From contig JBFOMH010000005.1 of the NCBI GenBank assembly GCA_040830765.1, forward strand, positions 160,001 to 224,000: a stretch of 64,000 nt of DNA, written 5' to 3'. The first letter of the stretch is position 1; each line of letters opens with the position of its first letter. This DNA is from Puniceicoccaceae bacterium (GTDB taxonomy: Bacteria; Verrucomicrobiota; Verrucomicrobiia; Opitutales; Oceanipulchritudinaceae). Made by a program: the position numbers. This document shows, one piece after another, positions 21,001-27,000 of this stretch.

Positions 21001-24000
21001 GTGCAGGGTAATTTGGAAAGTGGGGTCTTTGCGGGACTGGATAAACTGCCGATATCCAATGAGTACGGTGTCAATGACATGACCGGAGACGGATCGACAC
21101 TGGTTGGCTATTATCAAATTGCCTCTGAAGGCGGGATGCACCATGCCTGCCGGTGGGTTGATGGAAAGATAGAGGCACTGGAAGAGCTGCCGGGCACCAC
21201 TACCTCAAGTGCGCTTCATGTTTCTGGAGATGGTTCAATCATCCTTGGCAACATGTCGGGAGATGCAACCGACGACATCCTTATTATCTGGCCTGAATAT
21301 AACGGATATAAGCCACTATCCATCAAGGATATGTTGGTCAGCCACGGACATAATCCCAAACACCTGAACAACATATATTTCAACCCGGATACCTACCATG
21401 CCAACGCCATTCTAAGCGAGGATGGAACGACGATTGTTTGCTGGTACAACCACCAAGGCGATCCGCGCAGCTATCTGCTCCGGATCCAGATGCTCAACAT
21501 GTTCGGCCCGCACCGCATCCACGATAACCACTGCGACACCGGCGACTGGATGGGCTGGCTCAATGTCGAGCTGGAGCCATGGGCCTACTGCCTCAAAACC
21601 CAGTCATGGTTCTATATTCCAGAGGCCGTGGCAGAATCCGGCAGCGGCTGGATTTACATACCCAACCTGACCACAAATGTGCCTGAACTCTGGCTCGTCA
21701 TGGAGGGGGAAACAAGCTGGGGCTACAGCTATGGCCTCGGCAAGTGGATGTACGTCACAGCGTCGGGCTGGGTATACCTGTTCGGGTGAGGATTTTGAGG
21801 ATCCCTAAGGGATAAGCTTTCGTGGCTTGCCATCCGAAGCTCATAGAGCGAAGGATGGTGCGGGCGGCGAGAATCGAACTCGCCCTTCAAGCTTGGGAAG
21901 CTCACGTACTACCGATATACTACGCCCGCCTGAAAGGGATTAAGCCAATGGTGGTGCGGGATGTTGGCAAGCCCGAATTGTGAGAGGAATTGCGGGAGGG
22001 AACAAAAAGGAACCAAATCAGGCGGCCCCGAAGTCTTGGGTATGCATCGTTTCAACGGCATCCCGGACGGCTTCAGGATACGGCTGGGTATCGGAGGCGC
22101 GGGCCGGGTCGATCAGCTCATCGAGGTCCTTCGCCCCGGAAAGGGCTAGGGACACACCCGGCTGGTCGAGGATCCAGCGGTAGGTGGCCTGTGGGAGGGA
22201 GGTGACCTCCCCGCCGATCAGAGCGGCTGCGATCTGGTCGGCGTAGTCCACGCGCTCGGCAATCTCCTCGCGGGAGTAGCGGGAATTGAGACTGCCTTCG
22301 GGAAAGACGGTGTCCTTGGTGATAGCCCCGCTGAGGAAGCCATTGGCAAGGCACTCGCGGGCAACCACTCCGCAATTGCACTCAATAGCGGTCTCGATCA
22401 ATGGCCGGGCCTCGCGGTTGAAGGGACTGAGGACCACCTGGATGACATCGATTTTCCGCTGTTGCATCCATTCGGCGGACATGGCGGCGGTATCCTCGTA
22501 CATGGAGACGGAGTGACCTATGAACCGGATCTTTCCCTCCGACTTCAGCTTATCCAGCTCCTCCCAGACATCGTCCTGGATTTCGTTTGGCGTGAACGGG
22601 GAATGAAAAAAGAAGACATCCAGCACCTCGCGCCCCATGCGCCGCAGGCTGGCCTCACAGGATTCGCGGGCCTCCGCGGCGTAAAAGCGTCCGGGGATCA
22701 CATTGGAGGAAGTTCGACCGAACTTGGTCGAGATGATGACCTGATCCCTCGACGCACCGAGTGCTCTGCCGAGGATGGTCTCGGAAATACCGTCCTCCTC
22801 CTTGCTTCCGTAGAGCGGTGCCGTATCGAAGAAGTTGATCCCCTTGTCGATGGCTCCCTGGATGAGGCGCCCGGGAGCTCCTTCATCAACGTCCCCATAG
22901 ATCTTTCCGCTCAGTGCCCATGTGCCGAGTCCGATTTCGCTGACCGACAATCCGGTCCTGCCCAACTTGCGGTAGTTCATGCTAGATACCTGTCTCCTTG
23001 ATGATTTGTTCCATCCGGGAAACTGCGTTCCTGAGGACAACCGCCAACTGGCGTGCACCCCTCTCTTCCGAGGCCTCCCGGGGATCATCCCCAGTTATGC
23101 CATCCTCATCGAGAGTCACCGGGCGATCCGGCAGTGCGGCCAGGTCAACCGAGGTCGGGTCAAAATACATCTGGAAGGAAGTTTCGGTGGCCCCGGCATG
23201 GTCCGCCTTGAATTCCTCCCCGAGAAAATGCAGATCCGCCCAGACCTCGAAGTGCGTCCCTTCCGTCTTGCTCTTTGCCCTGTCGGCCCCCACCTGGAGG
23301 GCATCGATCTGTTCCGGCGGATAGTGGCCGGTAAATAGAATCACCACCTTGAATCCCTCGTCTGCCAGTTGCAGACAGAACTCCTCCGCTACCCGGGAGG
23401 CGAGATCCGCCGAGATATCGATGGTATGCGGAAAGCCCTTGAACGGCTTGATGGTGTTGACCCCCATCGGCAGTGGTGGCAGCACCAGGCCGCCCGTCCT
23501 CGCCGCGAGTGCCTTGCAAATGCCATCGGCCTTTGTGGAATCCAGTCCAATCGGGTCATGCTGACTATGCCACTCCAAAGCACCCCAGGGAAGATAGGCA
23601 ATGGGCGACTGTTCCTTGATGGCCTCGATCGCCGCCGGACGCAGGTCACCGTAAACCCCATGGGCGGGGCGTGGCTCTTCAGCGGCCATGCTCATGCCAC
23701 CCCGGCCAATTCGAGGATCTTGTTACCGGTCAAGCGCTCCTCCTTGGAGAGGGAATGCGGCGTCTTGGTCCCGTGGATAGCCATCAGCTCATTGAAGTGC
23801 TTCTTTGTCTCCTCGACAAACTCGTCAACTGTCCGCTCGTCATTGAAGAGCTTCATGATCTCCGGCAACCAGCGATGCCCGTAGCGGACATGGTTCTGCT
23901 CATCGTTGCGGTCGAAGGCCAGTAGCGTATCCGCCTCGAAGTCATTCAACTCACGGACCCGGTCCATAACCAGGGCCTTGGTCGGAAAGCTTCCCGCCTC

Positions 24001-27000
24001 AAATTCCATTGTCATCATGGCATAGCGTTCCGGCGGACTCATGTGGATGAGCGTGTTGTACAATTCCAGGGAGTGCTCGACCGTGTTCAGGTCGACTCCG
24101 AGCCCCGGCAACTGGCGGTAGCCAAACTGGCTGTGGCGCGATTCGTCCCAGAGGTGACGGGCCAGATCAAAATGCAAGTCAAAGGGAGCTTCCGGCGTAT
24201 CGTAGAAGACTGTCGCCAGATAATCCACCGCATCGAGTTCCATCATCAACCAGACATAGACCATCAGCCGGATGACCTTGGCATCCGTCTTTTTGTCCTC
24301 CAGCCAGGGCCGGACAATAGGATCCGCCTCCGGATCATGACCAAAGACACTGGAGCAGACCGGATAATTTCCCCGGTTGCAGACCTCCGGATGCGTGTAC
24401 TCACTTTCCTGATACACCCATGTATAGTCCGCCGGCAAGGTTGTGCGTGGCTCATTGCCGAGCCAACCACCCAAAGCGGCCATGGCCGACGAAAGGTGGT
24501 CCACCCATTCAGCCGCTTCCACATTGGCCAAGTACGGCACAATCTCCTCAGCATGGCGCACTTCGTCCAAAATGAACTCCTCCACCAGATGCCGCGAGGG
24601 CCAGTCAGCCAGTTGGTGGGTGGCTTCGATGTAGTCCCGGTAGGCCTGGAGGATCGCTGGCTTGATCACCTTGTAGAAGCCTGCCAGGGAAACCATTGGA
24701 TCTTCCGGACGGAGAGCTTCCTCGAAAATCGAACGGAAGCTTTCCCGGACTGTTTCCCCTTTGCCAAAACCGCTCATCTCCCTACCCCGCTCCCGGAGGA
24801 AACGGGCATGCCCGGCAGATTCCCAAACGTGCTGGCAGAGGAGGTATTTCAGTTCAATCTCACCGACCCGGGGAACGAGGGCAGTCGCGCAGCGGACAAA
24901 TTCCCGCTCCACCTCGAAGAGCATGCGTTGGAAAGCGGCCATTTCCTGGACCGCGGCCATGCGACCGGTGGCCGAACGGGCATTGGATGTGGTTGTCGAA
25001 GTCTTCATGAAATTCGTTTTCGTAAACGGTTAGCAGATGCGGCCACGCTTGCCGGCGAGGGAGTGTCCGGGTGGCTCAGCCCCAATCCAGCGGTCATCAA
25101 TCGGCTCACTGGCCCGCTGGTAGCGGCTGTCGCTGGAGAGCCGGATGCGGTTTTCGGATCGATTGTCGAGGGAGGCATGGACGAGAAACATGCCAAAGGT
25201 GAGGAAGTCTCCCGCCTCGTATTCGGTGGTCAGCCAGCGCCCGCCAAACTTGTTCCGGACAATGGGCGGGTTGTGGGAAAGCGTCCCGGTGAAGGTCCAG
25301 CCGCCGTCCTCGGCGCGCTTTTTCTGCTCCGGCTTGTTTTCGCAGAATTCGTCGACGTCGCGGAAGACGTAGTTCTTTAGCAGGTCCATCCGCTTGTGGG
25401 AGCCTTCGAGCACCATGAGACCACCCAGCTTGAAGGATATGTCCCCGTAAGGCAGCCAGCAGGTCATGTGCTGGTGCGTTCCCCGGCCCATGTACGGCAG
25501 GTCGCAATGGGGATTGGTTCCCTTTCCTGGACCAATCGCCCGCAGCCAGGTAAAGTCGTAATGCCGGATATTTTCGCCGAAAAGCTTTGTATAGAATTCC
25601 ACTAACCGACCGGAATAGAGCAACTTCTGCACGTGTGGATTGTTATTGGCGAATTCAGGATTAAACCCATAGCCCGAATCATCATGGCAGACGCCTTCCA
25701 TGGGATCGTAGCGTTTGTCGAGGCCACCGGTCTCGGCCATCCGTTCCATGATGCTGGCCCGGCATTCAAGAACCTCATCGCGGTCCAGGTAGCCCTTCAT
25801 GTAGAGGTAACCGTCCTCGGCGACACGACGACGCAGCTCTTCTACGTCATCAGCTGCATCGGAGGAGTCGCGCAGGAGGCCAACCTTGTCATCGTCCATG
25901 TCGAGGGGATGACCGTAGGAATATAACTGGGGAATGGGTGAAAGGGTTTTCATGATTCAAGAGAAGGTTAACTAATAAGGTTTATAAGATGATAATGCAG
26001 AAGAGGGCAATTCTGAATGGTTGAAATGGGAATTGTTTTGTATATATTGGTAAAATCATGAAATCGCCTCCAATGATCCCCCGGGACTGGCTAAAAAGCC
26101 CTATTCAATCAGATTCTGGAAAAATCTGGATGGCCGGCCAACTCTGGGACAAATCGACAATAAATCCCAAGAAAATGCGTATTTTGGGAAGATTTGCCCT
26201 TATCCTTGTCAATCATGGCCGGGCCTTTTACGAGGACAGCACCGGCCGGAACCTCGATTTGGAAGCCGGGAACGCGGTCTTGGTCACCCCCACCCTGGCC
26301 CATGCCTATGGAAGCCGGGACGGTAATAAGTGGGGTCAAACCTTTGTCGTCTTTGATGGCCCCCTCTTTGAGCTATTGCAGGCATCGGAAGCCTTTCGCA
26401 ACAACCAGCCGGTGTGGAAACTTGCCCCGTTGAACTTGTGGCAAAAACGTCTGGAGGAAATCCTTCCCCCGGAACGGGCTGTCAATGAAGTGGCGGCGCT
26501 GGCCCGGGTCCACCAGTTCGGCCAGCTTCTCGTAGAGATGGTCCTTGCCGGGACAGATACTGGAAAATCCCGGGAAAACCTGTGGCTGGAGGAAAGTCAA
26601 CGCCTCCTTGGGGAGCAGCAGGAAGGCCGTTGGATGACCCCGCAGGAAGTGGCCCGGAAGGTTGGCCTGAGTTATGAAAGTTTCCGGAAATCATTTGCTG
26701 CCGCTACCGGAAATCCCCCGGCAAAGTTCCAGCAGCAACGCCGCATCGATCTTGCCTGCGCAGCCATTTACCGGGGCCAGGAAAACTTCAAGCAGCTGGC
26801 TGAACGGCTTGGCTTCTGCGATGTCTACCACTTCTCCAAGGTGTTCCGTCAAGTTACAGGGACGCCCCCCTCCGCTTACCGCAGGGTTGTCCGCGGTAGC
26901 TAGGAAGTCGACTCCACCGGTGCCTGCTCCTCTTTCTGCTGGAAGTGGCAACCTTCAAAGGCCGTGTACCCGGTCAGGTCCCTGAAGCCCGGCTCGACGG

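Follow-up and report, generated by a model that had tools for sequence, protein, structure and literature searches.

The window analysed here, a stretch of 64,000 nucleotides from a Puniceicoccaceae bacterium, encodes a protein with two ferritin-like bundles next to a PhyH-family dioxygenase, and this arrangement raises the question of how many diiron sites the protein holds and whether the pair acts jointly on a sugar. An earlier note on this DNA had proposed two complete diiron centres and a two-oxygenase step in sugar catabolism.

Gene organization of the locus

The open reading frames of the tandem ferritin-like protein P0001 (23692..25008, minus strand, 438 aa), the PhyH-family Fe/2-oxoglutarate dioxygenase P0002 (25030..25953, minus strand, 307 aa) and a divergent AraC-family regulator (26058..26903, plus strand, 281 aa) were found as previously described, and Pfam matches upheld the family assignments of the latter two. 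The operon contained two genes more than the earlier note had given: a creatininase-family amidohydrolase (22982..23695, minus strand, 237 aa), the start codon of which overlapped the stop codon of the ferritin-like gene, and an aldo-keto reductase (22018..22980, minus strand). They were present in 11 and 10 of 80 related loci, respectively; these counts and all others over these 80 loci refer to the best 80 of 192 loci. The aldo-keto reductase probably starts at M37 of the listed reading frame (position 22980), which yields 320 aa, the median length of its relatives, and a terminator-like hairpin was located at this gene (22029-22009). A GFO/IDH/MocA oxidoreductase (26900..28195, minus strand, 431 aa) was convergent with the AraC gene in the window, whereas in most relatives a GFO gene lay inside the operon, downstream of the ferritin-like gene. 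A 768-aa protein of a family of approximately 770 aa (35288..37594, plus strand) was encoded further along, and its gene co-occurs with the ferritin-like gene. Contigs from the RNA libraries of two studies spanned the operon; they might be derived from DNA because the divergent promoter and neighbouring genes were covered as well.

A conserved 39-nt putative promoter/operator element (26014..26052, minus strand; core 26016-26030) was found between the PhyH and AraC genes, where it overlapped 26021-26048, a sigma-70-like site for AraC. Its occurrence tracked the AraC gene across relatives. The element was the sole strong site in the genome (48.6 bits), and the next one (14.7 bits) was located on contig C18 before unrelated genes; the genome scan revealed no second strong site that would suggest a regulon beyond the operon. 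With two mismatches allowed, the 15-nt core matched once in the window, which is the level of chance (0.57 expected), and the case for the putative element is its cross-species conservation.

Overall structure of the tandem ferritin-like protein

The full-length structure model of P0001 (pLDDT 95.6) revealed an N-terminal bundle (residues 16-160) and a C-terminal bundle (residues 243-387; helices 243-270, 276-302, 325-353 and 357-387). The two halves aligned with each other at an E-value of 1.5e-7 in a profile alignment, as expected of an internal duplication, and the two four-helix bundles of the earlier note were thus borne out. The match to DUF455 (PF04305) was indeed confined to the C-half (residues 254-407; 49.3 bits against a curated Pfam cut-off of 34.3).

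The matches of the structure search were filled by the N-half, which was similar to a Dps-like protein (Z-score 15.8, rmsd 2.2, 140 residues) and a mini-bacterioferritin (Z-score 15.6, rmsd 2.0). Scores for toluene monooxygenase chains were tied with those of Dps and the bacterioferritins (Z-scores 15.0-15.6, rmsd 3.4-3.6, approximately 175 residues); the B chains matched in this previously noted similarity are named as the beta subunit. This subunit is metal-free. The C-half bundle was supported by the sequence profile and the internal repeat; a model of the C-half alone, generated without an alignment, reached a pLDDT of only 44 and was discarded. The best solved-structure match of the family profile was a VlmB homolog, aligned with the C-half (E 2.6e-7). 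Bacterioferritins and R2-like oxidases were matched as well, the two ExxH motifs being in alignment, and storage bacterioferritins scored nearly as well as the VlmB homolog. A single-sequence PDB search with P0001 gave no match below E 0.5, Foldseek gave none at E 0.001, half-domain profiles gave only weak PDB matches (E 0.026 or worse), and NCBIfam contained no family for P0001 or seven distant relatives.

Diiron ligands of the two halves

All six diiron ligands of the pattern E, ExxH, E, ExxH were present in the C-half (E257, E289, H292, E337, E370 and H373), with D288 and D369 directly preceding the two ExxH motifs. These six residues were kept in 119 of 119 close relatives, 81 of 84 distant relatives and all 71 members of a further set, and the C-half is predicted with high confidence to bind two metals. 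In contrast, the corresponding N-half residues were E34, S64, H67, K116, E149 and H152, so that two carboxylates were absent. The profile alignment of the halves placed E34 on E257, E63 on D288, S64 on E289, H67 on H292, K116 on E337, E149 on E370 and H152 on H373. None of the 274 relatives had six ligands in the N-half (0/119, 0/84 and 0/71); the protein's own clade retained four of the six positions, and most of the family retained fewer. The helix-C ligand position was K or R in all 119 close relatives, and neither E nor D occurred at positions 114-119 in any of them. Judged from this register, the N-half very probably lacks a diiron site, and it may hold a single metal ion through E34, H67 and E149.

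We also considered whether both halves could be working diiron centres, the N-half using a non-canonical set of E32, E36 and E63. Every residue named in the earlier note occurred at its given position, and conservation in the close clade appears to favour such a set (E32 in 118, E36 in 111, E63, H67 and E149 in 119 and H152 in 115 of 119 sequences); moreover, the position of H152 in this clade is occupied by Q in 48 of 84 distant relatives. However, the register of the duplication places E32, E36 and E63, and E335 of the C-half, outside the ligand positions, the helix-C position carries K or R throughout, and among 84 distant relatives 31 have Tyr in place of E32 and 22 have Arg in place of E36. 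The motif given as 'E63xxH67' has the spacing E-x-x-x-H. The reported invariance in 15 sequences does not discriminate, as acidic non-ligand residues are equally conserved: in the 119 close relatives, conservation reached at least 95% at 63 of 167 positions in the N-half and at 104 of 170 in the C-half, including many such residues. Two complete sites were rejected on the register, the helix-C residue and the conserved non-ligand acids, and a second working centre of non-canonical type is very improbable. The idea that a single chain holds two full diiron centres falls, a correction that matters in itself.

Association of the ferritin-like protein with PhyH dioxygenases

The conserved gene unit described before was confirmed, with PhyH adjacent to the ferritin-like gene in 78 of the 80 loci (both exceptions had fewer than 250 bases upstream), AraC in 73, the 770-aa family in 53 and GFO in 54. 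Its patchy spread was also confirmed: the ferritin-like ortholog occurred in 4 of 151 genomes of the order, including its own, and a PhyH protein of at least 73% identity in the same four, the genomes compared being related and not independent. Both genes were missing from G045 and G189 (100% complete), which retained, in order, the gene of the 770-aa protein, AraC, the conserved element, GFO and an epimerase-like gene. Additionally, at least five separate branches had tandem DUF455 genes adjoining PhyH genes that shared at most approximately 31% identity with P0002. Co-loss and recurrence with unrelated PhyH partners support the proposed functional pairing under AraC in a sugar-catabolic setting more firmly than the earlier note had done, and the ferritin-like protein is very likely coupled to PhyH in function.

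The association was not universal. Of the 151 genomes, 18 had PhyH relatives of 43-57% identity but no ferritin-like ortholog, two of their loci carried the same divergent AraC, and G231 and G001 had no member of the ferritin-like family at all. In G444, the two orthologs were 40 kb apart. In a distant clade, PhyH lay within 1.3 kb in only 3 of 80 loci, and many copies were solitary.

Such coupling could also mean that PhyH alone demethylates the sugar, releasing formaldehyde, and that the ferritin-like protein is an accessory that provides or re-reduces the iron of PhyH, or removes the peroxide formed by uncoupled turnover. The recurrence beside divergent PhyH genes agrees with this, and two of the three PhyH genes of G144 and two of the four of G234 lie beside a tandem DUF455 gene, as would suit a general service role; however, in genomes with 29 and 37 PhyH genes only one and two do so. 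Up to four ferritin-like paralogs per genome were found, mostly among sugar genes, which suits substrate-specific enzymes, and most of the divergent paralogs had no PhyH (present at 3 of 19 paralog loci), which speaks against an accessory. No reductase, ferredoxin or effector gene was present among the recurrent families scanned from the 80 loci, which again fits an accessory role; a Rieske oxygenase gene occurred in five loci, and the 144 neighbours in the distant clade included no Rieske or reductase partner (one ring-hydroxylating oxygenase and one P450). Five of the 80 loci contained URO-D-family or corrinoid genes, which also flanked the cluster in G445 and G458 and would suit this reading, but URO-D genes are common, with at least five places in the window's own genome. 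Taken together, we consider an accessory role, the main rival reading and one that the earlier note had named as an alternative, rather unlikely, and the ferritin-like protein is on balance more probably catalytic.

The PhyH dioxygenase and the sugar context

P0002 scored 47 bits against the Pfam PhyH cut-off of 22, and H149-x-D151, H259 and R271, the HxD...H triad and the 2-oxoglutarate-binding Arg, were invariant in 48 of 48 aligned sequences. Its only solved-structure match was PtlH (1-deoxypentalenic acid 11-beta-hydroxylase; E 3e-5 as a single sequence, 5e-9 as a profile), although it remained far under the PtlH family cut-off (38 against 550 bits). PtlH, FJS and PHYHD1 share the Pfam family and metal triad with P0002. 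According to the available part of one report (PMC12709175), FJS and PHYHD1 strip an O-methyl group from a sugar, and PhyH-family enzymes demethylate 2'-O-methyl ribosides unaided by a second oxygenase, which would also suit an accessory ferritin-like protein; P0002 had no PHYHD1 match at E 0.01. Such genes were assigned to phytol oxidation by name only in the accessible portion of another (10.1101/324970).

The 768-aa protein had no Pfam or NCBIfam match, and a sequence search of the PDB at E 1 gave nothing. Its Atlas neighbours carry GH67N/GH20b domains in 30-96% of members, a lead that it may be glycoside-hydrolase-like. Within one family of 81 genomes, 24 of the 26 that have the ferritin-like ortholog also encoded the 770-aa protein, compared with 3 of the 55 that lack this ortholog. 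The neighbours of 19 PhyH relatives (apiosidase-like, GH125, GH78 and enolase-family) indicated no common substrate. The substrate of the pair is probably sugar-derived.

A nitrogen-containing substrate, such as an amino or N-acyl sugar or an aminocyclitol, was also considered; the diiron site would then act on nitrogen, as VlmB and Dob3 do. KanJ and KanK carry out an oxidative deamination followed by reduction, and here amide hydrolysis could precede a similar PhyH deamination and reduction; the route is possibly biosynthetic because an ABC exporter is present among the loci. The creatininase-family gene in the operon and the VlmB homolog as best solved-structure match agree with this reading, as do RidA-like and aminotransferase genes (4 of the 80 loci each), S51 and M28 peptidases (20 and 15 loci) and an MsbA-like exporter (46 loci). 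However, the seventh ligand position of N-oxygenases holds D366, not His, the exporter ortholog was present in only 13 of 26 genomes, with matches of at most 38% in the window's genome, and no carrier protein, synthetase or SAM methyltransferase was among the recurrent neighbours of the 80 loci. We consider nitrogen chemistry quite improbable.

Proposed mechanism

That the two genes come and go as a pair in a sugar operon suggests that the paired proteins probably carry out a two-step oxidation of a modified sugar, and a two-oxygenase step in sugar catabolism is a reasonable reading of the locus. Our preferred, though tentative, reading is that P0001 is a ferritin-like oxidase with one dimetal site, probably diiron, acting right after PhyH in an oxygen-dependent, AraC-induced side module of the sugar operon; we hold it to be marginally more doubtful than secure. 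The glycoside-hydrolase-like 770-aa protein and symporters would provide a modified monosaccharide, PhyH would hydroxylate an unactivated C-H, most likely of a methyl or other alkyl substituent, and the C-terminal diiron site would oxidise or cleave the product, which GFO or aldo-keto reductase enzymes could take onward. The N-bundle would be a structural partner, comparable to the beta subunit of a multicomponent monooxygenase joined in one chain with the active subunit, and K116 would replace a metal ligand. To our knowledge, the ferritin-fold oxygenases described so far need a reductant, and no reductase to supply one is encoded, which counts against an oxidase.

Reductant-free cleavage or four-electron oxidation is the chemistry of the HD-domain enzymes MIOX and PhnZ. 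A bolder and unlikely proposal is that tandem DUF455 proteins are widespread ferritin-fold diiron enzymes of such reductant-free chemistry on sugars, recruited repeatedly after different PhyH hydroxylases, with this cassette as an aerobic route for a glycan sugar that bears an alkyl substituent in Opitutia. The family had 537 matches, i.e. several hundred 50%-identity clusters, all of which an assigned reaction would cover, and it might reveal how these glycan degraders handle modified sugars. A plasmid collection queried with one distant relative gave no match. The cassette is a way into DUF455, with one regulator, one promoter element, two co-travelling oxygen-dependent proteins and carriers that are in culture (Nibricoccus aquaticus, Oleiharenicola lentus and Pelagicoccus sp. 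NFK12). The DUF455 literature within our scope, available in part and exclusive of supplements and subscription journals, assigned no reaction and contained no paper on this protein.

Comparison with known systems

PhnY*/PhnZ and TmpA/TmpB each combine a Fe/2-oxoglutarate dioxygenase and a diiron protein in one operon with no reductase, as described in the accessible part of PMC10574752. The present pair of dioxygenase and putative diiron protein, known from genes alone, is similar in this respect, but the diiron partner is ferritin-like (only DUF455 in Pfam) instead of an HD-domain protein, and unlike PhnY*/PhnZ, no phosphonate genes were among the recurrent neighbours of the 80 loci. The six-ligand set of the C-half is that of VlmB, AurF/CmlI, Dob3, ADO and R2lox; in contrast to these, P0001 has a tandem build, and its neighbours are catabolic rather than biosynthetic. 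In the N-oxygenases AurF/CmlI and Dob3, the seventh ligand is a His that precedes the last Glu by four residues (PMC12154687, available in part), whereas P0001 has D366 there, as do 53 of 53 close and 66 of 84 distant relatives. A His is found four residues before E289 instead (H285). The combination of one intact and one degenerate ferritin-like bundle resembles the alpha and beta subunits of multicomponent monooxygenases and PaaA/PaaC, although both bundles here form one chain and no reductase, ferredoxin or effector gene accompanies them. Compared with DUF455, an uncharacterised ferritin-like family to which the C-half belongs by its score, P0001 adds an N-terminal ferritin-like repeat with a degenerate site.

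Fold and metal ligands of P0001

P0001 belongs to DUF455 through its C-half, and its N-terminal repeat is degenerate. The AlphaFold2 model, based on a 138-row alignment, consists of two helical bundles (pLDDT 95.6, pTM 0.93), and the profiles of the two halves align with a probability of 94% (E 1.5e-7); together these predictions indicate that the internal duplication is real. The structural matches of the N-half (Dps, bacterioferritin, aldehyde-deformylating oxygenase and monooxygenase beta chains) were tied at Z-scores of 15-16. With the family profile, the C-half matched a VlmB homolog (E 2.6e-7) and, at E 3e-6, bacterioferritins; the two ExxH motifs aligned in these matches.

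The earlier note had assigned a full diiron ligand set to each half. In the profile alignment of the halves, however, E34, S64, H67, K116, E149 and H152 are in register with E257, E289, H292, E337, E370 and H373, respectively. Ligands were counted in three sets: the 119 top-ranking sequences among 569 close hits, 84 of 150 representatives (length filter, 380-500 aa), and 71 ORFs longer than 380 aa taken from 80 metagenome loci, the best of 496. All six C-half ligands were present in 119/119, 81/84 and 71/71 sequences, respectively; the third set is biased for the C-half because it was retrieved with C-half patterns, outside which E257, E337, E370 and H373 lie. The N-half carried four ligands in 115 of the 119 close hits and never more than five in any set (five in 7/84 and 3/71), and a six-ligand N-half occurred in none of the three sets (119, 84 and 71 sequences). 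Position 116 was Lys or Arg in all 119 close hits. As judged from these sequences, the complete diiron site is predicted in one half only, the C-half, and P0001 would work, if at all, as a one-site ferritin-like oxidase.

Several of the residues named previously fared poorly as ligands: E63 aligns with D288, which precedes the C-half ExxH motif by one residue and is not a ligand, and among the 84 distant relatives E32 is replaced by Tyr in 31 and E36 by Arg in 22, while E335 is Glu in just 5-6. Invariance inside the close clade is weakly informative, because conservation there reaches 95% or more at 38% of the positions in the N-half and at 61% of those in the C-half. One point favors the earlier note: H152 is retained in the P0001 clade where most of the family has Gln, so that the N-half may hold a single metal ion. 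A close relative (46%), P0123, has lost its C-half ligands as well and is perhaps an inactive copy.

Operon organization and surroundings

By ORF and Pfam family, the PhyH gene (P0002) lies at 25030-25953 on the minus strand, followed on that strand by the ORF of the 438-aa P0001 (23692-25008) and, by ORF and family matches, a creatininase-family hydrolase gene (22982-23695) and an aldo-keto reductase gene ending at 22018. The PhyH and P0001 genes are 21 bases apart, the P0001 and hydrolase genes overlap by 4 bases, the hydrolase and reductase genes are separated by about 1 base, and a terminator-like hairpin closes the series. The AraC gene (26058-26903, plus strand; ORF and family match) diverges from PhyH across 104 bases. 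Just past the operon end, the translations of a three-gene cluster (16491-20125) resemble an electron-bifurcating [FeFe]-hydrogenase.

The surrounding window genes are annotated as GFO, GxGYxYP, xylose-isomerase-like, heparinase II/III-like, GH42-like, TonB-receptor and sodium-symporter genes; two more long proteins of this glycan cluster (47331-48914 and 60896-62935) have no Pfam or NCBIfam match. At 35147-35277, where the heparinase II/III-like gene ends, a short unit occurs three times and reads in frame as a repeated peptide; at this place contigs from RNA libraries have loose ends and skip 38 bases, as a dispersed repeat would produce. The unassigned 770-aa family (35288-37594; L008:5841-7970) has GH67N/GH20b-like Atlas neighbors and is a candidate new glycoside hydrolase family. 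Its two subtypes, about 35% and 71-77% identical to the window copy, stand in tandem in some loci, and in two genomes corrinoid protein and URO-D-family (methyltransferase-like) genes adjoin or directly follow the 770-aa gene (L247:2-8451; L236:3996-6889).

A 39-nt element was found upstream of PhyH in 74 of the 77 loci with enough sequence (shuffles, 16/3850); its core was derived from the same loci, but high scores were also obtained for five regions that did not belong to them. The loci without the element (L046, L065 and L073) are exactly the three AraC-less loci, where PhyH directly follows the 770-aa gene. Since the element overlaps a sigma-70-like site facing AraC, it may be a promoter, an operator or both.

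Coupling of the ferritin-like gene to PhyH

The earlier grouping of the ferritin-like gene with PhyH under a divergent AraC was borne out. In the best 80 of 192 loci, PhyH adjoins the ferritin-like gene in 78 and AraC is present in 73, four of the seven misses having about 1 kb or less of upstream sequence; relatives carrying a taxon title were Opitutia or Verrucomicrobiota in 80/80. Among 151 order genomes, PhyH (at least 73% identity) and the ferritin-like ortholog occur, adjacent, in the identical four. Within one family, 26 of 81 genomes have the ortholog; as counted from tables, the 770-aa protein occurs in 24 of these versus 3 of the 55 without it, and the corresponding counts are 22 versus 7 for the GFO ortholog and 13 versus 2 for an ABC exporter.

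Two of the three exceptions, G045 and G189, are complete genomes. In both, the 770-aa gene, AraC, GFO and an epimerase-like gene remain in order, with the 39-nt element before GFO, and neither PhyH nor the ferritin-like gene is present; in the third, G458, a contig break falls at the place of the pair. The two genes are therefore a removable module of a larger operon. Against strict dependence, the orthologs stand 40 kb apart in G444, and PhyH relatives at 43-57% identity occur in 18 genomes without the ferritin-like ortholog. The module is real, well bounded and testable, and less strange than it had first been described. A literature search covering main texts, with few subscription journals among them, found no study of P0001.

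The wider tandem DUF455 family

The family has 537 matches among 50%-identity representatives and occurs in 23 of 301 genomes of a phylum sample, with up to four copies each. The genome studied here has a second tandem gene (C34:25974-27437, locus L112; 487 aa, about 28% identity), which neighbors a URO-D-family gene and a xylose-isomerase-like gene and whose clade takes in PhyH-adjacent copies of G144 and G234. A PhyH gene adjoins 3 of 19 paralogs, and in 80 distant metagenome loci PhyH and AraC lie within 1.3 kb in 3 and 8, respectively. Other distant loci have sugar kinases, isomerases and transporters nearby, and many copies stand alone. In G430, the cluster that carries the ferritin-like ortholog also holds a second, distant tandem gene (25%; L245:3715-5652), which has a TonB receptor on one side and an S51 peptidase on the other, and a fatty-acid-desaturase, Rieske and NAD-binding reductase fusion (L126:1004-3295) lies about 4 kb from another paralog.

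PhyH-adjacent copies fall on at least five separate branches of a 64-row tree, and none of their PhyH partners exceeds about 31% identity to P0002. PhyH genes stand beside a family member in 2/3 cases in G144 and 2/4 in G234, versus just 2/37 and 1/29 in two other genomes. PhyH expansions were seen in G117 and G060 (37 and 29 genes, versus 3-5 in related genomes). A role of the ferritin-like protein as an accessory to PhyH would account equally well for this repeated pairing with unrelated PhyH proteins, and we regard it as rather unlikely.

Comparison with known oxygenase systems

The features tested place P0001 outside the PhnZ, N-oxygenase and multicomponent monooxygenase families. Amidohydrolase, RidA-like and peptidase neighbors could point to a nitrogen-containing substrate, but P0001 lacks the seventh metal ligand described for N-oxygenases (PMC12154687), and such a substrate seems improbable. 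Within the PhyH family, FJS and PHYHD1 remove O-methyl groups (PMC12709175); if PhyH acted purely in this way, a second oxygenase would be superfluous. The joint loss of PhyH and the ferritin-like gene, together with the lack of a reductase among the recurrent neighbors, better fits a diiron enzyme that takes over a stable hydroxylated intermediate. By analogy, we tentatively favor, at somewhat less than even odds, a route in which PhyH would form such an intermediate by hydroxylation and hand it to the ferritin-like enzyme, much as PhnY and PhnZ convert methylphosphonate through a hydroxymethyl compound to formate (PMC10574752).
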